Of a stretch of 64,000 nt of DNA, positions 21,263-52,027 are shown piece by piece. Under the pieces are notes generated by a model. That model was given only the letters and a program-made list of their open reading frames with translations, did not search any database and was not told the DNA's origin. Position numbers and translations under genes: made by a program. Where the stretch lies: the NCBI GenBank assembly GCA_965198005.1, contig CBDAOI010000004.1:800001-864000 (forward strand). The letters run 5' to 3'. Every line of letters starts with the position of its first letter. Within the stretch, counting starts at the first letter, position 1. This DNA is from Spirochaetia bacterium (GTDB lineage: Bacteria; Spirochaetota; Spirochaetia; SZUA-6; Bin103).

Positions 21263-21351
21263 GCAACCTGACCGGCGACGCGGTGCGGGACCTGCTGGAC
21301 CCGAGGCTCAGGGGCGGTGGCGGGCGCCTCGGCGCCGGCGGCGCGGGCTGA
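21263..21351 (+). pseudogene. OppC/DppC permease 3' fragment
   Basis: NLTGDAVRDLLDPRLRG. Confidence 0.75.
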
Positions 21352-21460
21352 TCGCGCTGATCGCACCTTTCGCACCTTTCGCACCTTGACGGGTGTCGAG
21401 CGTTGTGGTACAGTAACGCGACGACGTGAGACTCGGACGGATGCCGAGTGGCCCGAGCGG

Positions 21461-21603
21461 TTGACGGTCTGCTGCCCGAGTGCAAGAATGCAGCGTTCGG
21501 GGATATTGAGGGATGAGTATGAGGCACCACGACGACAGCCAGCGCAGTGACCGGTTGGCGGTGACGCAGCCGGTGGGCCCCCCGTGGGTCCCCCCCCCCC
21601 CCC
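21461..21603 (+). promoter_or_regulatory. Promoter/short-ORF/poly-C module copy 1 (C14 at 21590-21603)
   Basis: TTGACG-17-AAGAAT with extended TG; ATG 21513; homologous to 26186-26330 and 30370-30739. Confidence 0.6.
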
Positions 21604-21806
21604 GGCCCCTAACCTTTGAAACCGAGAAACAACTAACCGCTCCGGCTGATCGCTCCGTACGCGACCCCGCGCACGCCGTTGCCTTCACCACCGCCGTGGC
21701 TATCGGTGGCACACCACCCCGCATCGCGTTGGCACGCAGGTGCGGACGCCCGTCGAGCGGTCGGTGTTGGCCTGATGGGACGCACCCAGATCAGACCCTA
21801 TTCTCT

Positions 21807-21975
21807 GTCAATTGCCGAAACCTACAGAAAATGGAGGTGCAAATGATACTCAAAGAACCGCACGCGCGCGCGGCGTGAGCCCGGGTGAACCCGGTGAGTC
21901 ACACGCCGCGCGCTTCAGGAAGTTGACTCTATCTGGCTGGTCGCCTGCGTTGCGGGCGCGAGAGTAGCCACGGAG
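21807..21975 (+). promoter_or_regulatory. Conserved structured leader with uORF MILKEPHARAA (21843-21878)
   Basis: Near-identical to 31015-31182; GGAGG RBS; 12-bp stem 21866-21877/21902-21913 enclosing ccggg-TGAA-cccgg. Confidence 0.7.
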
Positions 21976-22024
21976 CGACAAGTCGCTCCCCAATACTTTC
22001 AACATTCCATCGAAGGAAGAAACG

Positions 22025-23824
22025 ATGAAGATATTCTTTACACGGACTTTCGCGGTTGCGTTGGTCCTGGTGCTGACCGCCACCGGCCTCTGGGCCGCTG
22101 GCGCAGAAGAGGACACGACCGCCGCCGGGGAGAAGAGGTATGTCACCGACCCGACCACCGGCAAGATGGTGGTGGCACCACAGTATGGCGGGACAATAAC
22201 CTATGCCAAGGGAGGGACATCGACGGGTGCCGACGTCCTGGTCCTAGGCTCAATGGCAGAAGCCCTAATCGATCCCGTCGTCGAGAAGCTGGGGATGGCG
22301 GACTGGGCAGCGCCCAGGGACGAATTCCAGTTCCTCGGTAATCTCTGCCCTCCAGCCTACACGAAAGGGGGTCTGGCGGAAAGCTGGTCGCAGCCCGACC
22401 CACTCACTATTATCGTCAAAGTCCGCCGGGGCGTTCACTGGCATGACAAGGCACCGATGAACGGAAGGGAGCTGACTGCCCAGGATATCGAGTACAACTA
22501 TCACCGTATCTTGGGACTCGGCAGCGGTTTCACCGAGCCTAGCGAAGCTAGTAAATATGGTGCGTTGTCAGGTGTGAACGTGGAATCGGTAGCGGCCACC
22601 GACAAATATACGGTTGTTTTCAAGCTGCAGGAGCCAAGGCTCACTATTCTGACCGCTATCTTCAACGAATTCACCGGCTTTATGTACCCCCCCGAAGTGA
22701 TCAAGGAACACGGGGACATGCAGGATTGGAGGAACCTGGTCGGCACCGGACCCATGATGCTGACTGACCGGGTCGAGGGCATCTCCGTAACCTTTACCAA
22801 GAATCCCGACTACTGGGGCTACGACGAAAAATACCCGGAGAACCGTTTGCCCTACGTTGACCGGATAAGGGCACTAGTTATGACGGAACCGGCGACACGT
22901 CTGGCGGCACTGCGCGCCGGTAGGCTTGATTACATAGGTCTGATCGGCGCAGCTCAAATAGCGTCTCTCGACCAGGTAGAAAGCCTCCAGAAGACCAACC
23001 CCGAACTCGTGATATATCCGTCTGCTGCTTTCTCGACCACTAGTATAGGCATGAACGTTCAGGCGGAGCCCTTTGACGACATCAGGGTGCGCAAGGCAAT
23101 GCAGATGGCCATAAACCTCGAGGAAATCAACAACGCCTACTATAGGGGTTATGCCGATATCATACCTCAGGGGCAGCTAAGCCGGACTATTTCACAGGCT
23201 GTCATCCAATTCGAAGATTGGCCCGAAGATGTCAAGAAGGTCTTTGACTACGACCTGGAAGGTGCCGAAGCGTTGCTTGATGAGGCTGGATATCCGCGCG
23301 GCGCCGACAGCGTGAGATTTAAGACCGACTTTATGCACAACGAGAGGTACGATTTGAACTATGTACAATTAGTCGCCTCATACTGGAAAAGAATTGGCGT
23401 TGACGTGGAGATTGATGTACAGCCAGGCACGGCCATTGGCGCTAGAAGAAGTGCGGGAGATTTCAGACTCATGCAAGGGGAATCGGCCGGGAAAGTGTGC
23501 CCATGGGGATGGGCAGGGGGGAAGCGCTTTACGGATGTAGCATGGGACTCCTCCAATGTCGACGACCCAGTTTATAATGCCATGGTTGAAGCCGCCGAAG
23601 GCGCCTCCACCATGGAGGAACTAAACAGCATGGTTAAAGAGGTAAATCAGTATGCGATAGAGAACTTCTGGACGCTATTTAGTCCTGTGGCCCCAGTGTA
23701 TTCGGCGGTCCAGCCGTGGATCATAGGTTTCAACGGCGAGATGAGGTTGGGAGAGAATCGATATATCACCGTTTTCACCCGCCTCTGGATCGATCAGGAG
23801 CTCAAGGAGTCGATGGGTTTCTAG
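22025..23824 (+). CDS. Peptide/nickel ABC transporter substrate-binding protein (family 5)
   Basis: Signal peptide, QYGGT, LAESWSQPD, VGTGPM, KNPDYWG, PFDDIRVRKA. Confidence 0.93.
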   Translation: MKIFFTRTFAVALVLVLTATGLWAAGAEEDTTAAGEKRYVTDPTTGKMVVAPQYGGTITYAKGGTSTGADVLVLGSMAEALIDPVVEKLGMADWAAPRDEFQFLGNLCPPAYTKGGLAESWSQPDPLTIIVKVRRGVHWHDKAPMNGRELTAQDIEYNYHRILGLGSGFTEPSEASKYGALSGVNVESVAATDKYTVVFKLQEPRLTILTAIFNEFTGFMYPPEVIKEHGDMQDWRNLVGTGPMMLTDRVEGISVTFTKNPDYWGYDEKYPENRLPYVDRIRALVMTEPATRLAALRAGRLDYIGLIGAAQIASLDQVESLQKTNPELVIYPSAAFSTTSIGMNVQAEPFDDIRVRKAMQMAINLEEINNAYYRGYADIIPQGQLSRTISQAVIQFEDWPEDVKKVFDYDLEGAEALLDEAGYPRGADSVRFKTDFMHNERYDLNYVQLVASYWKRIGVDVEIDVQPGTAIGARRSAGDFRLMQGESAGKVCPWGWAGGKRFTDVAWDSSNVDDPVYNAMVEAAEGASTMEELNSMVKEVNQYAIENFWTLFSPVAPVYSAVQPWIIGFNGEMRLGENRYITVFTRLWIDQELKESMGF

Positions 23825-24325: not shown

Positions 24326-25288
24326 TTGAGGGCCTATATCTTCAGGAGATTGTTGCTGACTGTCCCGACCCTGTTCATATTGAGCATCCTGGTCTTCCTT
24401 TCGGTCCGCTTCATCCCCGGCGACGTAATAGACGCAATACAGGAGCGGCTGGGATACACAGTATCCGGTGCGTCGGTCGACCGGGAAGCGCTAGAGCGTC
24501 AACTGGGACTAGACGTGCCTGTCTACGTGCAGTACGGACGCTGGTTGAGGGGCATTTTCGTGCACGGCAGCCTCGGCGAATCACTGATGGGCCGAGGGGC
24601 GGTGGAGCAGAAGATAATAGATAGACTGCCGGTAACCATTGAGCTTGGTTTGATGGCAATCCTCATCGGGCTGGTGATCGCGTTGCCGGTCGGCATCTAC
24701 TCGGCGATTCGCCAGGATACCGTCGCCGACTTCCTGGGGCGCTCGGTCGCCATCGTCGGCCTGGCCACGCCCAACTTCTGGCTAGGCATCATGGTCATGA
24801 TCTACCCGGCCATCTGGTGGGGCTGGGCGCCGCCGCTGGAGCTGGTTTCCCTCACGGAAGACCCGCTGGGGAATCTGGCGGTGTTCGTCATTCCCAGCCT
24901 GATTCTGGGAACGGCCGCGGCTGCAGCCACCATGCGGATGACGCGCACCATGATGCTGGAGGTGCTCCGGCAGGATTTTATCAGGACGGCCTGGGCGAAG
25001 GGCTTGCGGGAGCGGGCCGTGGTGATCCGACACGCGGTCAAGAATGCCCTGATCCCGGTGGTGTCCCTGATCGGCCTGCAGTTGCCGATTCTGGTGGGGG
25101 GCGCCGTGATCATGGAGAACATCTTCAACCTGCCGGGCCTCGGCCGTCTCTTGCTGACTGCCCTCAATGACAGAGACTACCCGATGGTCTCCGGCATCAA
25201 CCTGTTTTTCGCCACCGGTGTGGTGGGGATCAATCTCCTCATCGACCTGGTCTATGCCTTCTTGGACCCCAGGGTCCGCTATGACTGA
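24326..25288 (+). CDS. Peptide ABC transporter permease (OppB/DppB)
   Basis: RRLLLTVPTL, FIPGD, RLPVTIEL, LPGLGRL, LDPRVRY. Confidence 0.92.
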   Translation: MRAYIFRRLLLTVPTLFILSILVFLSVRFIPGDVIDAIQERLGYTVSGASVDREALERQLGLDVPVYVQYGRWLRGIFVHGSLGESLMGRGAVEQKIIDRLPVTIELGLMAILIGLVIALPVGIYSAIRQDTVADFLGRSVAIVGLATPNFWLGIMVMIYPAIWWGWAPPLELVSLTEDPLGNLAVFVIPSLILGTAAAAATMRMTRTMMLEVLRQDFIRTAWAKGLRERAVVIRHAVKNALIPVVSLIGLQLPILVGGAVIMENIFNLPGLGRLLLTALNDRDYPMVSGINLFFATGVVGINLLIDLVYAFLDPRVRYD

Positions 25289-25436
25289 AGCCACTGAGCA
25301 TCATCGGCGGGGTCGTCATCCACACGTTGAGATATCAGCCGGACACCGGCGCGGTTTCCGCCCGCAAGTGGTCAGGTTAGAATCTCCCGCGAACACCACG
25401 GCGTCATGACGACGGCGCGGCCACGGACGGAGACTC

Positions 25437-26020
25437 ATGGACGACCCCTCCTACAAACGCCTGCGCAAGCACGAACGCATCGTCAAGGATCTGCTGATCG
25501 GGTTCATCGCGCCGCAACGCGCTCCGGGGTGGGCCGGCGCGCTCGACTTCGACACCCTCCGCGAAGGCCCCACCGAGGAGATCACCGACGAGTTGCGCCG
25601 CCGGCTCGGTGGCGTGGTGTGGTCGATCGACCGGCGCGACGGACGCGGCGGGGTGCAGACCCTGCACGTGGTGATCGAGCATCAGTCCAGCGTGGACTAG
25701 TCGATGCCGCTGCGGTTCCTCAACTACACGAGCCTGCTCTACCAGCGGCTGTATCGCGACCGCACCAGGTGGAGCAAGGGCGAGACGGCGGACCCGGTGT
25801 TGCACGTCGTGGTGTACAACGGCGATAGTCGGTGGGACGCGCCAGGACCGAGCAAGACGGTCCGGCGCAGCTCGCGCTGAGTTACGAGGTGCTTGATCTG
25901 ATGGCCGTGGAGTGGGATGATCTACCGCGGCCGAACCTGCTGACGTGGGTGGCGGAAGTGGAGCAAAGTGTACAGGCGAGGGCTTTGCCTGAGCGGGTAC
26001 GGGAGTTGGGGGAGTGGCTC
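25437..26020 (+). pseudogene. Rpn/YhgA-like (PD-(D/E)XK) recombination-promoting nuclease
   Basis: DDPSYKRL, LDFDTL, VIEHQSSVD*, then MPLRFLNY...VVYNG..RWDAP; internal TAG and frameshift. Confidence 0.8.
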
Positions 26021-26185
26021 GACCACCGACTTCCTCGCCCGCGTGGACCGCGCCAGTTCGTAGCCCGGCCTTGCGACGCCTCCGGGGTGGTTGGTCGACT
26101 CAGGAAGGGGCCGATGCGCCCGGGTCCACGCCGCGAGGGTGCTCACGGGCGCCGCAGCTGCCAAAAAAAACTTTTCGTTTGCCGG

Positions 26186-26330
26186 TTGACTTGTTTGCCG
26201 CAGGTGTGCCAGGGTAAGCGCCACGGATTTGAACGGATGCAAAAAGTGGCTGATGACACTACTCAGCACTGCCACCGGTTAGCGGTAACGCAACCGGCGT
26301 GTCCTACCCTTGCCCCCCCCCCCCCCCCCC
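26186..26330 (+). promoter_or_regulatory. Promoter/short-ORF/poly-C module copy 2 (C18 at 26313-26330)
   Basis: TTGACT-18-CAGGGT with TG; ATG 26237; ccggttagcggtaacgcaaccgg matches copy 1. Confidence 0.55.
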
Positions 26331-26451
26331 GGAATCCTTTCGCGGCGGGGGTTGACAAATGGTGGGGCCCCCCCAGACTGTCTCTTCAGGCCATGCAGTC
26401 AATCGCCGCTACATCTGGGTATGGCTGTGCCTCACCTGCGGAGGGCTTGAG

Positions 26452-27360
26452 TGACTCTTGAGCGTGCTGGTATTCCTGTCGGTGCGCTTCATCCCCGGCG
26501 ACGTCATCGACGTCATGGCGGCTCGCTCGGCGGCCTTCGGCACCTCCGTCGACCGGCAGCTCGTAGAACGCAGGCTTGGCCTGGACCTACCGATCCACGT
26601 GCAGTACGGCCGCTGGATCGGCGGCATCCTCCTGCGCGGCACCCTCGGCGAGTCGCTGCTGGGCGGCTGGCCGATCGAGGAGCGCATGCTGGGACGACTT
26701 CCGGTCACCGCCGAGCTCGGGCTGCTGGCCATCCTCATCGGCCTGGTCATCGCGCTGCCGGTGGGCATCTACTCGGCGGTGCGCCAGTACACGGCGGCCG
26801 ACTACGTGGGACGGTCGGTCGCCATCATGGGGCTGGCGACGCCCAACTTCTGGCTGGGAACGATGGTGATGATCTACCCGGCCATCTGGTGGGCGTGGTC
26901 GCCGCCGATGGAGCTGGTCCCGTTCGCCCAGGACCCGCTGGGCAACCTCGGCATGTTCCTCATCCCGAGCCTGATCCTGGGGACCTACCTGTCGGCCAGC
27001 ACCATGCGCATGACGCGCACCATGATGCTGGAGGTGCTGCGCCAGGACTACATCAGGACCGCTTGGTCCAAGGGTCTGCTGGAGCGGTCGGTGATCCTGC
27101 GCCACGCGGTCAAGAACGCCATCATCCCGGTGGTGACGCTGGTGGGCATGCAGCTGCCGATCCTGGTGGGCGGCGCGGTGATCATCGAGAACATCTTCAA
27201 CCTGCCGGGGCTGGGGCGGCTGATGCTGGACGCCCTCAACGACCGCGACTACCCGGTGGTGTCGGCGGTGAACCTGTTCTTCGCTACGGTCGTCGTGGTG
27301 GTCAACCTGGTGACCGATCTGCTGTACGCGTCGCTGGACCCGCGGATTCGCTACGAATGA
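26452..27360 (+). pseudogene. OppB/DppB permease lacking ~15 N-terminal codons
   Basis: Full homology from LSVLVFLSVRFIPGD to LDPRIRYE; first helix start missing. Confidence 0.8.
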
Positions 27361-27383
27361 GGCAAAGGCAATGAGGGAAACCC

Positions 27384-27731
27384 GTGGGTGACGTATCACA
27401 GCTGACGCCGGCCGGCGCCGAGCCGGCCGCGGGCGCGGCTGCGCAGGCCGGACCGCGGCGGTTCTTCGGCCGGCTGGTGCGCGAGCAGCCGTTGGGGACC
27501 GCCGGCGGCATCGTCATCCTGATCCTGGTGCTGGTGAGCATCTTCGCCGACGGGCTGCTCAGCCGGGAGGGGCGGCAGTACGTGGAGGTCGCGCCGCATC
27601 TGGCGCTGTGGTCGGGGGTGTGTCTGACCGTGGTGGTGTACAGCCTCAACATATTCGGCGACGCGGTGCGCGACCTGCTGGACCCCCGCCTGCGCGGCCG
27701 GCTCGGGCGCTACGGCGCGGGCAGGGCGTAG
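27384..27731 (+). pseudogene. OppC/DppC permease with large in-frame internal deletion
   Basis: N-terminus (EQPLGTAGG..SIFAD) joined directly to C-terminus (LSREGRQY..LLDPRLRG). Confidence 0.85.
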
Positions 27732-27828
27732 CGGGGTCAACGCCATCAGCCACGGGGCAGACTGCGGACATCGTACGCACGAAGTGGTCTTGATACGAGA
27801 AGAATTCTACCTTATTCTTGAAACTGCG

Positions 27829-28080
27829 ATGAAGATGAAGGTTGGGACCTTGATCGATGCCGAGTTGCTCACGGAGGTGAAGCGCGCCGCCGCGGAGGAC
27901 GGGAAACGGCTGTGCGATCTGTTCGCCGACGCCCTTACGGGATACCTCGCGGAGCGCGCTCCGGAGCCTCGCCGCGCGATGCAGGCATACGCCCGGTTTT
28001 GCAACAACCCCATAGGCGGCATGGGCGCGGGCGAGGACGATCTCCGCGAGATCGTCGACGACGACCTGCTGGCGCGGTGA
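27829..28080 (+). CDS. Ribbon-helix-helix antitoxin
   Basis: MKMKVGTLIDAELLTEVKRAAAEDG; overlaps PIN start; aagaat/attctt inverted repeat upstream (27800-27819). Confidence 0.7.
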   Translation: MKMKVGTLIDAELLTEVKRAAAEDGKRLCDLFADALTGYLAERAPEPRRAMQAYARFCNNPIGGMGAGEDDLREIVDDDLLAR

Positions 28081-28481
28081 AGGACACGGAAATCGCCGAC
28101 GGCTCGCGGTGCGTGCTCGACGCGAACGTTCTGATCTACGCCGAAGAAGGACACTCGAAGCAAGCGAGCGCCCTGCTTGCGCGGTGTGCCGAGGGCGCGG
28201 TCAGCGGAATCATCCCTTTCGCCGCACTCCTTGAGGTGTGTCACAAGCTCATGCTGATCGAGGCGCGCGCCCGGAACAAGATCTCGGGGTCGAACCCCGC
28301 CCGCAAGTTGTCCGCCCAACCGGAGGTCGTGAAAACCCTGCATGCCTATCAGGCCAAGGTCGACGCACTGCTCGACATGGGTATGCGCGTCGAGGAACAT
28401 TGCATCGCGGACTATACTCGTGCCTTGGAACTACAATCCGCGTACGGTCTACTCACGATCGACTCCTCGTCCCCAGCCTGA
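28077..28481 (+). pseudogene. vapC: PIN-domain toxin, 3'-truncated
   Basis: VLDANVLIYA...YGLLTIDS, cut at ~28468 by a permease fragment. Confidence 0.8.
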
Positions 28482-28811
28482 TCCTGGGGACCTACCTGTC
28501 GGCCAGCACCATGCGCATGACGCGCACCATGATGCTGGAGGTGCTGCGCCTGGATTACATCAGGACCGCCTGGGCCAAGGGTCTGCTGGAGCGGTCGGTG
28601 ATCCTGCGCCACGCGCTCAAGAACGCCATCATCCCGGTGGTGACGCTGGTGGGCGGCGCGGTGATCATCGAGGCTGATGCTGGATGCGCTCAACGACCGC
28701 GACTACCCGGTGGTGTCGGCGGTGAACCTCTTCTTCGCCACGGTGGTGGTGGTCAACCTGCTGACCGATCTGCTGTACGCGGCGCTGGACCCGCGGATTC
28801 GCTACGAATGA
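28469..28811 (+). pseudogene. OppB permease 3' fragment (diverged copy of 26960-27360)
   Basis: Near-identical DNA with small deletions and a frameshift. Confidence 0.8.
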
Positions 28812-28830
28812 GCCGGGCCGATGGGTGACG

Positions 28831-29660
28831 ATGGGTGACGTATCACAGTTGGCGCCGGCCAGCGCCGAGCCGGCCGCGGGTGCGGTTACGGCTGGGCAGG
28901 CCGGGCTGAGGAAGTTCGTCGGCCGGCTGGTGCGCGAGCAGCCGCTGGGGACCGCCGGCGGCATCGTCATCCTGCTCCTGGTGCTGGTCAGCATCTTTGC
29001 CGATTCGCTGGCGCCCTACCGCTACCAGGAGATCCACCTGCGCGACCGCCTGCAGGCACCCTCGGCCGCGTACCTGCTGGGCACCGACCACGTGGGGCGC
29101 GACCTGCTGAGCCGCCTCATCCACGGGGCGCGGCTGTCGCTGGCGGTGGGGCTGGCCGCCACGGTCCTCACCGTCGTGTGGTGGTGCTGATCGGCGGCAC
29201 CACCGGCTTCATCGGCGGCCGGCTGGACCTGGTGACGCAGCGCTTCGTCGACGCCTGGATGGCGTTCCCGGGGCTGCTGTTGCTGCTCACCATCATGTCG
29301 ATAGCCGGCCGTGGCATGCTGCAGATCATCGTCGTGCTGGGGGTATCGGGCGGCATCCCGGCCTCGCGCGTGGTGCGCGGCGCGGTGCTGGGGGTGAAGG
29401 AGAACGTCTACTTCCAGGCGGCGCAGGCGATCGGCAGTTCGCGCCGGCGCTCGCTGCTGCGCCACGTGCTACCCAACGTCGCGGCGCCGATCATCATCAT
29501 CTTCAGCATCAACGTGGGCGGGGTGATCATGGCGGAGGCGGCGCTGAGTTTTCTGGGGTTCGGGCTGCCGCCGGACATTCCGAGCTCGGGCGGGATGCTG
29601 AGCCGGGAGGGGCGGCAGTACATGGAGATCGCGCCGCGCCTGGCGCTGTGGCCGGGGGGC
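28831..29660 (+). pseudogene. OppC/DppC permease, frameshifted (~29175) and 3'-truncated
   Basis: LLGTDHVGRDLLSR, HVLPNVAAP, EAALSFLGFG. Confidence 0.85.
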
Positions 29661-29734
29661 CCGACCACTGCGCACGAAAAGAGACTGTACGAAGCATACT
29701 TGGCCGGGGGGGATCGACTGTACCTTCGATACCT

Positions 29735-30034
29735 ATGAAAACCGAGGATGAACCCGTGGAGCTCACGGAAAGCCAGTTCGCGACCGCGATTCCGGCAAGT
29801 GTTCGCAGACGCTTCATGCGGGGCCGGTTCGAATCCGGTGCGGACGTGGTGGCTCTACGGCGGTTTGTCGGACTTACGCAGGTCCAGTTTGCAGCCTCGG
29901 TCGGCATCAGCGTTCACACCTTGCGCAATTGGGAACAGGACCGCCGCCGTCCTGAAGGGCCAGCGCTGGCTCTCCTGCGCATCGCCGCGCGGCACCCGCG
30001 AGTCATCCGCGAGAACACCGAGTCGGTGGCATGA
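29735..30034 (+). CDS. Xre/HTH antitoxin preceded by a BrnT-like toxin tail (29660-29738)
   Basis: LRRFVGLTQVQFAASVGISVHTLRNWEQDRRRPEGPALALL. Confidence 0.85.
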   Translation: MKTEDEPVELTESQFATAIPASVRRRFMRGRFESGADVVALRRFVGLTQVQFAASVGISVHTLRNWEQDRRRPEGPALALLRIAARHPRVIRENTESVA

Positions 30035-30369
30035 GAGCGTTGCGGCGCGCGTGCTGGTGCGGATGAAGCGGCGGTGGCTGCCGGCGGTCAGCTCATCGCA
30101 CCGGGCTGCTTGACGGTGGCTAAATACATCACCTGCAATCAGTTACAGAATTCCTTCCGGTCGGACCGTGCGTGCATTCACTCGGTGGGCCAACAGGTGG
30201 GCATGGTCGCGTTTCACACTCGGAGGGCTTGAGCTTATGACAGGGCTTGCGATCTCGCCCTCAAAACTTTTCTGTAACCTCTCGCCTCCAATTGCCATAT
30301 CTGTTTACGATGCACCTCTGCTCCTCTACCAGCCGTTCCCCGAGAATCGCTGCGGTGACCTCCGAGCGG

Positions 30370-30746
30370 TTGACAGTGCGGCGCGCATATGCAAGGGTGG
30401 CTCGCCTGAGATTCGACGGATGCAGATGAAGCGCGATCACGACAGTCAGCGCAGTGGCCGGTTGGCGGTGGCCGCAACGTCACCACTGCCGGTGGCGGCG
30501 ACGCTGGCGGGCGGCCGGAACGGCCGGAGTCCGCGCTTGACATGGTCAGGCGAGCCTGTGACGATAGGGAGTTCGGGGATCGAACGGATGGTCATAAGGC
30601 GCGATGGCGACAGTGAGTGCAGTCACCGGTTATTGGGGATGTGCGGTCAATCGGCGCCACACATGTGCATAGCTGCGTCTCAACTTCGGAGGGTTCGGGT
30701 GACCTACAACAAGTTAACGCTTACCCCCCCCCCCCCCCCAAAAAAA
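30370..30746 (+). promoter_or_regulatory. Tandem promoter/short-ORF modules 3 and 4 with C16A7 tract (30724-30746)
   Basis: TTGACA-17-AAGGGT (30370) and TTGACA-17-GACGAT (30537), both with extended TG; ATGs at 30420 and 30588. Confidence 0.55.
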
Positions 30747-31014
30747 CGATTTCGAACCGAGAACCAACTAACCGCTGCGGCTGATCGCCCCGAACGCGCC
30801 GCGGCGGGCGCCTTCGCGGTTGGCACGGGGGTAGCGGCCGGCTCCGTGTGGCGCCGGCTCAGTCCACGTTCGTTCACTGGCTACCGCAACCGTCCCGCAG
30901 CCCCGTCCGTCACACCCCCGGCGTTGCCCGCCATTCAGAAGCGCTGCCGCGCCGACCACCATCCGATGGTGGCACACCACCCAGTGTGGGGTTGTGACCC
31001 AGGTCCCGACGTAC

Positions 31015-31182
31015 GTCAATTGCCGAAATCTACGGAAAGTGGAGGTGCAAAATGATACTCAAAGAACCGCACGCGCGCGCGGCGTGAGCCCGGGCGAACC
31101 CGGTGAGTCACACGCCGTGCGCGTCACACAGTTGACTCTCACTGGCCGCCTGCGTTGCGGGCGTGAGAGTAGCCAGGGAGCG
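31015..31182 (+). promoter_or_regulatory. Conserved structured leader with uORF MILKEPHARAA (31052-31087), second copy
   Basis: Homologous to 21807-21975; differences fall in loops or keep G-U pairing. Confidence 0.7.
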
Positions 31183-31230
31183 GCAAGCCGCTGCGCAATA
31201 CTCTCGGAAATCAAACATACGGAGTTACGT

Positions 31231-33051
31231 ATGAATATTGTAATAATCACAAGGGCCTTCGCGATTGCGTTGGTCCTGGTTGTGACCGCGACCGGCGTCT
31301 GGGCCGCCGGCGCAGAAGAGGAGCCGGCAGCCGCTGCCGACAAAGAGACGGTGTTCGACCCCGCCACCGGCCAGACGTGGACCGCGCCAGAGTATGGCGG
31401 GACACTCACGCAGGGCGTTAGGGGCTTTCCCCCAAATAATAATAGTGACGGGTGGTCGGTTCATCCTGGCTGGGCGGCTCACCTCATCAGTGGCGTTAAT
31501 GAGAAGCTAGCCTTCGTCGACTGGGGACAATCCAGGGATATATGGACAGGCACACAGCCTTGGACCGCCGAGATGTTTATAGGGAATCTGGCTGAAAGCT
31601 GGTCAACGCCCGACGACACAACGTTCATCTGGCACATCCGCCAGGGCGTTTACTGGGACAATAAGGCGCCGGTGAACGGTCGGGAGTTCGATGCCCATGA
31701 CGTCGAATATAACTATCACCGCTATTTGGGTCTGGGCGATTTCACCGAAGACGGACCTAGCGCCCATCAGAGTGCTATAACTGCGTCTGGGAGAGCGGGT
31801 GTAGAGATCGAATCGGTAACGGCCACCGACAAATGGACGGTTGTTGTTAAGCTCAAGCCTCACGTCCTTGTGTTGCAGCATATGCTCAACAACTACTTGA
31901 TGATCTACGCCCCAGAGCAAATCGATGAATACGGCGACGCTAAGGATTGGAGGAACCTGGTCGGCACTGGTCCCTTGAGACTGACTGATGTCGTGGAGGG
32001 CAGCTCGGCAACCTGGGAGAAGAATCCTAACTACTGGGGCTACGACGAAAAATTCCCGGAGAACCGCTTGCCCTATATTGACAAGTTAAGGTCCTTGTTG
32101 CTACCAGACGTGTCAGCACGTCTGGCAGCAATGCGTACGGGCAAGATTGATATGCTGAGCAACACCGGCGACGCCTATATACAATCTCTCGACGATGTAG
32201 AGAGCCTCCAGAAGACCAACCCTGAAATCGATGTGTGGCCCACTTATGCCTGGATAGCGGGCGCATTCCTTTTCAACCAGTCTCTGCCGCTCACTGCCGA
32301 CGTCAATGTGCGCAAGGCACTGCAGATGTCAGTGGACCGCGAGACAATTTCCGCTACCTACTATAAGGGTTGGGGAGATCCAACACCTGGTGCGCTATTC
32401 AATCAACGCTTTATAGGGTATTCCTGGCCAATGGAAAACTGGCCCGACGAGGTCAAGCGTGAATATGAGTATCACCCGGAAGAGGCAGAAGCGTTGCTTG
32501 ATGCGGCCGGGTATCTGCGCGGCGCCGACGGCTATAGGTTCAAGGTCAAGCTTGCCAATAACGAGGCGAACGATTCGACCTATCCAGAAATCATCATGGG
32601 GTACTTCGAAGCCATTGGCGTTGACAGCGAGCTTGTTATCCTGACTCGTGCTGAAGTAGGAGCTTCCCAAAGGGCGGACACGCACGAGTGGCACCTAGCG
32701 GATGGGGGATGGATGGGCCTTACAACCCACTTTGGGATCGGGTCGGTAAGCCAAAACATTGATGGCTTCAGCTTCAACAAAGCGAAGGACCCGCGTATGG
32801 AGGCCCTGTATTATGCTGCCGAAGAGACTATGGACATTGAGGAGTATAAGAGTATTCAAAGACAGGCCGATGAGATCACTGTAAGGGAGCACTGGGGCCT
32901 ATCCAAACCCTTCTCCCCTATCGTTTTCGTGAGCCACCCGTGGGTCCAGGGCTATTTCGGTGAAGATTCTTTGGGAAGGGGTGAACGTAATACCTTCTTG
33001 GCCCGCCTCTGGATTGATAGTGAGCTGAAGGAAGCAATGATGGGAAATTAG
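31231..33051 (+). CDS. Peptide/nickel ABC transporter substrate-binding protein (family 5)
   Basis: Signal peptide, EYGGT, LAESWSTPD, VGTGPL, KNPNYWG; GGAG RBS. Confidence 0.93.
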   Translation: MNIVIITRAFAIALVLVVTATGVWAAGAEEEPAAAADKETVFDPATGQTWTAPEYGGTLTQGVRGFPPNNNSDGWSVHPGWAAHLISGVNEKLAFVDWGQSRDIWTGTQPWTAEMFIGNLAESWSTPDDTTFIWHIRQGVYWDNKAPVNGREFDAHDVEYNYHRYLGLGDFTEDGPSAHQSAITASGRAGVEIESVTATDKWTVVVKLKPHVLVLQHMLNNYLMIYAPEQIDEYGDAKDWRNLVGTGPLRLTDVVEGSSATWEKNPNYWGYDEKFPENRLPYIDKLRSLLLPDVSARLAAMRTGKIDMLSNTGDAYIQSLDDVESLQKTNPEIDVWPTYAWIAGAFLFNQSLPLTADVNVRKALQMSVDRETISATYYKGWGDPTPGALFNQRFIGYSWPMENWPDEVKREYEYHPEEAEALLDAAGYLRGADGYRFKVKLANNEANDSTYPEIIMGYFEAIGVDSELVILTRAEVGASQRADTHEWHLADGGWMGLTTHFGIGSVSQNIDGFSFNKAKDPRMEALYYAAEETMDIEEYKSIQRQADEITVREHWGLSKPFSPIVFVSHPWVQGYFGEDSLGRGERNTFLARLWIDSELKEAMMGN

Positions 33052-50351: not shown

Positions 50352-50983
50352 ATGCTGGACGATTTTCTGGTCCGCGCGCTGCTCGCCGGCATCGGGCTCG
50401 CGCTGGTCACCGGGCCGGCGGGCTGGCCACCGGCCTCGTCATCCTCGCGTTTTTTCCCACGATTCGGATCGACCTGCAGGCACTGCTGTTCGGCGACATT
50501 CTCGCCGTTTCGCGCACCGACCTGGCCCTGATCTGGGGCGGCGGCGCACTGGTGATGGCGCTGCTGGCGCGGATCTGGCGGCCGCTGCTGGCGGCCACCG
50601 TCAATGCCGACCTGGCCACCGTGGCCGGCCTGCGGCCGGAGCGGACGCGCCTGATGTTCGGGCTGCTGACCGCGACCGTGATCGCCGTGGCGATCAAGAT
50701 CGTCGGCATCCTGCTGATCGTGGCCCTGCTGGTGATCCCGCCCGCCACCGCGCGCCGCTTCGCCGCCAGCCCGGAGCAGATGGCTGCCCTGGCCGCCGCG
50801 GCCGGTGTCCTCGCCATCGCCGGCGGCCTGTTCGCCTCGGCCCGGCTCGACACCCCCTCCGGCCCGTCGATCGTCGTCGCCGCCCTGCTGCTGTTCGCCG
50901 TTACCCGCTTCCGCCGCCCGCGCCCGTCCGGGAGCCGAACACCACGCCGGCGGCTTCCTTGTGAACCCGGCGAAGCGCCATGA
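50352..50983 (+). pseudogene. znuB: Zinc ABC permease, internal deletion/frameshift at ~50420
   Basis: MLDDFLVRALLAG..GPAG joined to IDLQALLFGDILAV. Confidence 0.85.
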
Positions 50984-51720: not shown

Positions 51721-52027
51721 CCACCGTCAACGTCGACCTGGCCACCGTCGCCGGCCTGCGGCCGGAGTGGACGCGCCTGATGTTCGGGCTGCTGACCGCG
51801 ACCGTGATCGCCGTGGCGATCAAGATCGTCGGCATCCTGCTGATCGTGGCCCTGCTGGTGATCCCGCCCGCCACCGCGCGCCGCTTCGCCGCCAGCCCGG
51901 AGCAGATGGCTGCCCTGGCCGCCGCGGCCGGCGTCCTCGCCATCGCCGGCGGCCTGTTCGCCTCGGCTCGTCGTCGCCGCCCTGCTGCTGTTCGCCGTTA
52001 CCCGCTTCCGCCGCCCGCGCCCGTCCG
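51721..52027 (+). repeat. Direct duplicate of the znuB 3' half (50595-50930)
   Basis: Near-identical DNA with a few SNPs and one ~29-bp deletion. Confidence 0.9.

Follow-up and report, generated by a model that had tools for sequence, protein, structure and literature searches.

One class of contingency loci carries a simple repeat in the 5′ part of an open reading frame (ORF), as with the poly-G tracts of Neisseria pilC and of many Campylobacter jejuni genes and the CAAT repeats of Haemophilus lic1, and in another, exemplified by Bordetella fim, Neisseria opc and Treponema pallidum tpr, promoters have a spacing that is altered by the tract; the tpr tracts are poly-G runs located at the promoter upstream of the genes, where they affect the initiation of transcription. 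Here we describe a family of repeat-bearing leader cassettes ahead of genes for peptide-binding proteins in a Spirochaetia bacterium, using as a reference a stretch of 64,000 nucleotides (nt) of its genome (the window; G000:C4:800001-864000, where G000 is a 4.89-Mb assembly in 4 contigs with 66% GC). Coordinates without a contig name refer to the window and to its forward (+) strand. As in the loci with repeats inside ORFs, the frame of an ORF is set by the length of a homopolymer or short non-triplet repeat a few codons from its start, and there are many loci per genome with in-frame and out-of-frame states mixed. Unlike those loci, the repeat resides in a non-conserved, putatively regulatory leader ORF 400-500 nt upstream of the gene that would be regulated, the genes belong to one 141-member nutrient-binding family rather than encoding surface antigens or lipopolysaccharide functions, and switching within populations is predicted. 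There is a similarity to tpr in that homopolymers precede members of a paralogous family in a spirochaete, but the tpr tracts are promoter tracts whereas these lie inside an apparently transcribed and translated leader, and the sequences are unrelated.

Also relevant are the attenuators that depend on an upstream ORF (uORF) and on Rho, of which tnaC-tnaA, speFL-speF and cruR are described in the available part of a 2025 review of Rho (PMC12360218). These share with the spirochaete leaders an ORF that encodes a conserved peptide and, downstream, C-rich RNA on which Rho could load, such that the position of the ribosome would decide read-through; as presented there it is a ligand that stalls the ribosome, whereas here the proposed input is a heritable change of frame at a repeat. 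The same part of the review covers phase-variable Rho termination by invertible DNA, in Escherichia coli fimS and the Clostridioides difficile flgB switch, in which, as proposed here, a random heritable change in the DNA sets the activity of a Rho site in a leader. Those switches use site-specific inversion by a recombinase, in contrast to slippage acting through the frame of translation, and each is a single switch, compared with what would be tens of independent ones. A full-text literature search found no paper on such leaders, and the review names no repeat-driven case in the part available. In kind, the leaders appear to combine the contingency locus with uORF-gated attenuation, both of them known, through a mechanism predicted from sequence features.

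The initial annotation of the window had drawn attention to four related starts, each with TTGAC, 17-18 nt, an nAnnnT hexamer and ggATG and each encoding a related peptide, and to poly-C tracts at 21590, 26313 and 30724 as the only long homopolymers. Our reading of the sequence bears out the starts (at 21461, 26186, 30370 and 30537, which we refer to as cassettes 1 to 4), and the translations match; the tracts are in place as C14 (21590..21603), C18 (26313..26330) and C16 followed by A7 (30724..30746), and C or G runs of at least 12 nt occur at these three loci alone (15 overlapping matches in the window, with 0.05 expected from shuffles). That description needs revision in its view of the ORFs and of the extent of the family. 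What was taken to be a short ORF turns out to be only the conserved opening part of a long leader ORF (121 codons at 21513-21878, 74 codons at 26237-26461 and 211 codons at 30420-31055), and the cassettes are not a local set of four but are spread genome-wide, the 211-nt cassette 1 yielding 81 blast matches in G000 when used as a query.

The G000 genome contains 95 C or G runs of at least 10 nt, the longest being 28 nt, and nearly all of these tracts are flanked by a few recurring upstream and downstream modules. Blast searches with short queries count 101 mini-ORF cores, 53 post-tract blocks and 79 second mini-ORFs, and the modules have a fixed order: one to six units of promoter plus mini-ORF (tandem units have a period of ~122-135 nt), the poly-C tract, sometimes (AC)n, the post-tract block, ~300 nt, the second mini-ORF MILKEPHARAA, a GC hairpin, and the gene for a substrate-binding protein (SBP). 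An ORF of at least 200 amino acids (aa), mostly of ~600 aa and with an SBP-type signal peptide, follows the second mini-ORF in 77 of 79 places. The check put forward with the initial annotation, a genome search for the cassette with its downstream genes, places a same-strand SBP_bac_5 paralog within 2.5 kb downstream of 78 of the 95 tracts; among the remaining 17, two have one on the opposite strand and the other 15 lack one. Viewed from the genes, 74 of 141 SBP N-termini have a run of C9 or longer within 1.3 kb upstream, and none of the 141 has a run of G9 or longer. The ~141 SBP_bac_5 paralogs of one protein in G000 constitute an extreme expansion.

Past the repeat, two of the three reading frames close within ~45 nt, at a conserved TAA and a conserved TGA, and the third is open for 200-430 nt. 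The open frame, which reads ..FRTEKQLTAPADR.., is stop-free in the most conserved block, the TAA and TGA of which fall in the other frames, and it runs to the stop of the second mini-ORF at the foot of the GC hairpin. Over the interval from the post-tract block to the ATG that begins the second mini-ORF, the 37 copies in G000 (10,077 nt) have 6 stops in the open frame against 80 in the +1 and 59 in the +2 frame, and 13 copies from four other species (G001, G003, G005 and G006) have 0, 27 and 26 respectively. In 25 of 37 G000 copies, and in 11 of 13 from the other species, the length of the spacer keeps the second mini-ORF in phase, and when each distinct spacer length is counted once 19 of 33 are in phase (binomial p 0.0036); insertions of 18 and ~40 codons preserve the frame. 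At 65 of the 95 tract sites, stops end two of the frames within 75 nt while the remaining frame is free of them for at least 180 nt, a combination seen at 16% of 5,000 random positions.

Within the window, leader ORF 1 (21513..21878) reads C14 as prolines, crosses the post-tract block in the single open frame, and terminates on the MILKEPHARAA stop. This copy of the block (modB, 21619..21680) carries TAA at 21634-21636 and TGA at 21647-21649, both outside the leader frame, and cassette 1 also has a TAA at 21610 and a TGA at 21617. The leader ORF of cassettes 3 and 4 (30420..31055) contains two in-frame mini-ORF units (ATG at 30420 and 30588), with C16A7 and the post-tract block in the open frame, and it terminates in a TGA that shares bases with the start codon of the second mini-ORF (ATGA); the second copy of the block, whose presence in both cassettes had been recognized at the outset, extends over 30750..30800 and has TAA at 30769-30771 and TGA at 30782-30784, in the two other frames. 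Going by the assembled tract lengths, both of these leader ORFs are in the open (in-frame, 'ON') state.

The second mini-ORF (21843..21878, with codons ATG-ATA-CTC-AAA-GAA-CCG-...-TGA) has its own GGAGG upstream and shares its stop with leader ORF 1. The hairpin is a 12-bp GC stem around CCGGG/CCCGG (21866..21913), the end of its 5′ arm overlapping the TGA of the leader ORF, and the same hairpin follows the second copy of the mini-ORF (31052..31087). The proximal leader in 21825-22030 has strong structure (z = -3.55), none of 200 shuffles folding equally well. We also note that the 5′ arm of the stem codes for the C-terminus of MILKEPHARAA, and that two further hairpins lie ahead of the SBP start in the proximal leaders (21825-22030 and 31035-31235).

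The first mini-ORF has the properties of a coding sequence. Its core (21519..21566 in cassette 1, consensus peptide MKRHDDSQRSDRLAVT) changes mostly at synonymous third positions among 101 aligned units, with swaps of CGC/CGT, CAT/CAC, GAT/GAC, TTG/CTG/TTA, GTG/GTC and ACG/ACC, and the ratio of nonsynonymous to synonymous differences (pN/pS) is 0.49 in its own frame versus 0.97 and 1.62 in the other two (62 distinct cores); on the strength of these two properties the N-terminus MKRHDDSQRSDRLAVT appears to be selected as a peptide. The tract lies ~20 codons into the leader ORF, and its length alters the frame of that ORF, but the ORF is a leader and not the regulated gene. The open-frame peptide, however, shows hardly any constraint: pN/pS is 0.80, versus 1.16 and 0.84 in the other frames, and the median pairwise ratio of nonsynonymous to synonymous substitution rates (dN/dS) is 0.7; GC content by codon position is flat at 0.70/0.65/0.72, versus 0.57/0.42/0.66 in the adjoining SBP gene, and a Pfam search with the long ORF finds no family, even at E up to 1. 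We read the leader ORF as one whose translation would matter and whose product would not. A gene on the minus strand at 21308-21724, in which the tract is read as poly-Gly, was considered and rejected, the best Pfam match being RuBisCO_large at E 0.059, far short of the cut-off. In tandem arrays the start-to-start spacing of mini-ORFs in G000 is 0, 1 and 2 mod 3 in 34, 7 and 34 of 75 cases, counts that we leave uninterpreted because a few array types dominate; the 2 mod 3 spacing corresponds to an ATGA stop-start overlap, as in the array at C4:1992745-1993532 on the minus strand.

Simple repeats of the hypermutable kind, that is homopolymers of at least ~8 nt or repeats with a non-triplet unit, are found both in the window and in the leaders at large. 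When repeats are counted by unit inside SBP leaders (3.75% of the genome) and elsewhere, those with a 1-nt unit number 79 in leaders and 48 outside, an enrichment of 42x. The corresponding counts are 5 and 3 for 7-nt units (43x), 10 and 21 for 8 nt (12x), 2 and 6 for 4 nt (8.6x), 64 and 297 for 2 nt (5.5x, many of these being the CG run of the hairpin), 2 and 23 for 9 nt (2.2x), 1 and 73 for 3 nt (0.4x), and 0 and 33 for 6 nt (0x). Tract length is labile between paralogs: 19 copies with upstream flanks at least 90% identical span C9 to C28, 8 others likewise span C9 to C28, and three pairs with at least 95% identity on both sides have lengths of 18 vs 15, 10 vs 28 (flanks 97-98%) and 9 vs 9. 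Long tracts are scattered over all three frames, with 9 of the 28 tracts of at least 9 nt in frame, versus 7 of 9 tracts that are at most 8 nt or interrupted (Fisher p 0.024). This contrast would fit a mutable switch with selection for the in-frame state, with the proviso that the numbers are small and the copies share descent.

Leaders of this type are not confined to G000, nor is poly-C the only repeat that they contain. Among the genomes searched, 7 of the 10 others from the genus carry the cassette and none of the 13 from the sister genus does; public records bearing the post-tract block are titled Spirochaetia metagenome-assembled genomes (MAGs), and the public runs holding the stretch include sponge metatranscriptomes. 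A 4.1-kb contig (L057) that carries the post-tract block is binned with a Chloroflexota MAG, probably in error. Over ~450 nt, leader copies from two different species (L060 in G003 and L061 in G001) are 97% and 93% identical to a G000 leader (L017), and such near-identity across species points to strong constraint, gene conversion or transfer. A second subfamily of leaders has the mini-ORF MGTD.IQPSRR and no post-tract block, and its mini-ORF is near-leaderless, the ATG lying 9 nt behind a TACACT hexamer. At the same relative place it has the repeats (TCAC)6, (CCGACTA)3-4, (GCTCACC)4 and (CGACTACC)4, at loci that include C3:894707, C4:2001746, C2:8123 and C4:1410967 of G000. The pattern of two closed frames and one open frame is seen in 7 of the 9 leaders of this subfamily listed, with the open frame ending at the stop of the second mini-ORF or overlapping its start. 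In a leader of G001 (L084, at C1, ~1225900) an 8-nt repeat, (CGGCACTC)x6, takes the place of poly-C.

At the RNA level, the ~250 nt behind the tract contain ~40% C and ~28% G (71 leaders), and in cassette 1 the GC skew is -0.29 to -0.35 over 21560-21719. A structured RNA at the cassette 1 tract was considered and rejected, since its z is +0.88 and 163 of 200 shuffles match or better its fold. Neither 21461-22025 nor 30370-31231 contains an intrinsic-terminator-like site on the + strand, and these leaders do not show the alternative hairpins into an intrinsic terminator that characterize classical his/trp-type attenuation. The G000 genome has a rho gene (698 bits) and also efp. With C-rich, G-poor, unstructured RNA and a rho gene, the leaders have the composition of Rho-attenuated leaders, which is a statement about composition and not about binding. 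Rfam gives 0 matches at the gathering score for the whole window, and hits at E up to 10 in 21300-22100 are at chance level. Contigs from RNA libraries are identical to 30566-30723 and 30822-30979 and hint only weakly at transcription, as DNA carry-over or paralogs could also be their source.

The explanation that we favor, and that we hold tentatively as nearly but not quite as apt to be right as wrong, is that slippage at the repeat switches the frame of a regulatory leader ORF, which in turn gates Rho-dependent polarity. Mini-ORFs with the conserved N-terminus MKRHDDSQRSDRLAVT would each be driven by a sigma-70-like promoter, present singly or as several in tandem, the last unit carrying a hypermutable repeat ~20 codons in, usually poly-C, sometimes with (AC)n after it, and in other subfamilies with 4-, 7- or 8-nt units. 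The length of the repeat would fix the reading frame downstream. In one frame, ribosomes would cross the 200-430 nt of C-rich, G-poor, unstructured leader and halt at the second mini-ORF, or overlapping its start, at the foot of the strong GC hairpin; in the other two they would stop within ~45 nt at the conserved TAA or TGA. In-frame translation would leave the leader RNA covered by ribosomes and transcription would get to the SBP gene (ON), and out of frame the bare C-rich RNA would permit Rho loading and early termination (OFF or low). Replication slippage would switch ~70 operons individually and at random. The stochastic ON/OFF switching of transporter paralogs proposed in the initial annotation is partly supported in this form: the lability of tract length, the enrichment of non-triplet units and the frame contrast all fit slippage, but in cassettes 1 and 4 a promoter-spacing effect is unlikely and it is more likely the frame of the leader ORF that is switched. 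The proposal at its full extent, of a sponge-associated spirochaete with ~70 heritable random frame switches and Rho-shielding leader ORFs across ~140 peptide-binding-protein operons, is one that we consider distinctly more doubtful than probable.

A number of observations weigh against a Rho-gated frame switch or limit the case for it. The stop and frame counts are not independent because the paralogs share descent, one variant of the post-tract block (CTAGCTAGCTAA) shuts all three frames, and the upstream signal of the mini-ORF is only a weak Shine-Dalgarno-like GGA. As the second mini-ORF has a strong GGAGG of its own, the hairpin could open without the long ORF. Homopolymers of 14-28 nt may be off by 1-2 bases (the relatives are MAGs), which would alter single frame calls including those of the window, although miscalls of 1-2 bases leave the difference between C10 and C28 and the stop statistics unaffected. 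Among the short contig pieces listed from the public sequencing runs none crosses a tract (they end at 21552/21556, 26279 and 30723) and paralogs confound the mapping, so that these pieces speak neither for nor against variation within populations; in metagenome contigs, locus-specific and general tract patterns had 0 hits each. Finally, what the sequence shows is the anatomy of the leaders, the frame statistics, the lability of tract length between paralogs, the link to SBP genes, the skew of C over G and a rho gene; promoter use, translation of the leader ORF, slippage in populations, the role of Rho and the effect on SBP expression are steps that we infer.

There are other ways to account for these structures. 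The C-rich repeat could be an RNA-level loading site for Rho or another C-binding factor, its length tuning termination and the frame being secondary. In its favor, poly-C, TCAC, CCGACTA, CGACTACC and AC are all C-rich and G-poor, the stretch with C over G follows, the tract is predicted to be unpaired, a rho gene is present, and C is always on the sense strand (74 vs 0); uORF-linked Rho attenuators are moreover known from the available part of the Rho review (PMC12360218). We nonetheless regard tuning by length as unlikely, since it leaves unexplained why one stop-free frame is in phase with the second mini-ORF, why the most conserved block contains TAA and TGA, why 3- and 6-nt units are not enriched, and why short tracts are mostly in frame. 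It is also conceivable that the tract is a poly-proline stall or frameshift site that senses the supply of EF-P or prolyl-tRNA, as in classical attenuation, or scrambles the frame in translation or transcription, with no heritable switching. On CCC-C runs, tRNA-Pro readily shifts the frame by +1, and proline codons serve as a sensor in Salmonella mgtP; in the spirochaete leaders every frame gives 3-9 prolines ~20 codons past the conserved peptide, in a genome with efp. The tracts are, however, pure C, where selection on a peptide would permit mixed proline codons, and the same position is occupied by non-proline repeats such as (AC)n, TCAC, CCGACTA and the 8-mer of L084, which makes poly-proline an improbable target of selection; neither an intrinsic terminator nor an alternative-hairpin set lies by the tract, and the internal units of arrays have the conserved peptide with no proline run. 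We judge a proline-dependent mechanism to be very unlikely.

The precise mixing and matching of upstream and downstream modules at the tracts, the fragmented transporter duplicates in the window (with cassette 2 abutting a truncated gene), and the nearly random frame states of long tracts (9 of 28 in frame) would all be expected if the tracts were neutral hypermutable junctions in fast-recombining, partly decaying leaders, providing microhomology for exchanges among paralogs and having no regulatory role. Such junctions would not explain why dozens of paralogs, and other species of the genus as well, have the tract in the same place, nor the strict strand polarity and the conserved design of one open frame and two stops, and we think a neutral origin quite unlikely. 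That the long ORF is a genuine small protein gene of 110-150 aa whose product is itself phase-varied accords with the open frame and the phase-preserving insertions and deletions, but its pN/pS is no better than in other frames, and with its flat codon-position GC and lack of a Pfam match it is highly improbable as a protein gene. There is an equally slim prospect that the tract acts on transcription at the DNA level, through promoter spacing or a template-strand G-quadruplex. Template-strand G runs of at least 15 could form a quadruplex, and in cassette 2 a TTGACA (26352) whose spacer contains C7 begins 21 nt after C18. In cassettes 1 and 4, however, as in most leaders, ~100-160 nt separate the tract from the nearest promoter-like site upstream: C14 starts 101 nt past the -10 at 21484-21489 and C16 starts 158 nt past that at 30561-30566. 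Because of this distance a spacing effect is unlikely in these two cassettes, in which the tract is neither between nor directly beside the -35 and -10, and there is no promoter-like site between the tract and the SBP gene. The C7 itself (26367-26373) has -2 and +1 variants in metagenome contigs, but paralogs differ there too, and we do not take these variants as evidence because they may be paralog-derived.

The promoter-like sites are P1 (21461..21489; TTGACG, 17 nt, AAGAAT, with TG preceding the second hexamer), P2 (26186..26215; TTGACT, 18 nt, CAGGGT), P3 (30370..30398; TTGACA, 17 nt, AAGGGT) and P4 (30537..30566; TTGACA, 18 nt, ACGATA). Of these four starts a strict consensus scan passes P1 alone, P2 being among those that fail, and it adds a fifth, truncated unit at 21386..21414 (TTGACG, 17 nt, TACAGT, again with TG ahead of the second hexamer). 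Alignment of 101 units shows the -35 and the nAnnnT pattern to be conserved. Just ahead of the truncated unit, a 9-nt unit, TCGCACCTT, is repeated three times at 21361-21387.

The genes downstream of cassettes 1 and 4 are SBP_bac_5 genes, at 22025..23824 (599 aa; E 5e-67) and at 31231..33051, where the signal-peptide ATG is at 31231 and the frame extends upstream to a GTG at 30994. It had been suggested that all four starts face peptide ABC transporter genes, and this applies to the cassettes at SBP_bac_5 genes; cassette 2 faces a 5′-truncated permease at a rearrangement junction instead of an intact operon. Its ORF (26237..26461, 74 codons) has a diverged mini-ORF (MQKVADDTTQHCHRLAVTQP), reads C18 as prolines and continues into the small ORF of the next unit, and the cut-off cassette is fused directly to the truncated OppB-type permease paralog (26458..27360), which is 77% identical to 24599-24898 and onward. 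The permeases in the window are of the OppB/OppC type, and several are fragments of tandem duplications. Rearranged duplicates occupy 25300-30200, with OppB/OppC-type fragments at 26458-27360, 27384-27731, 28238-28828 and 29178-29738, and a weak PIN-domain ORF is found at 27912-28481. Elsewhere in the window, two 250-nt direct repeats (50595-50844 and 51721-51970) are 98% alike and bear no relation to the cassettes.

As a caution for annotation, the ORFs of 110-210 codons that precede these SBP genes probably should not be taken for protein genes. Should the model be correct, it would join repeat slippage to uORF-gated Rho termination, which in the literature searched, including the available part of the Rho review (PMC12360218), are found only separately, and it would do so on the scale of ~70 switches within a single 4.9-Mb genome. 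Which transporters are on in a cell or a population could then be read from the sequence, through the frame of the leader ORF. The range of contingency loci would widen from pathogen surface antigens to the uptake of nutrients by an uncultured animal symbiont, and each cell would carry its own random subset of uptake specificities.

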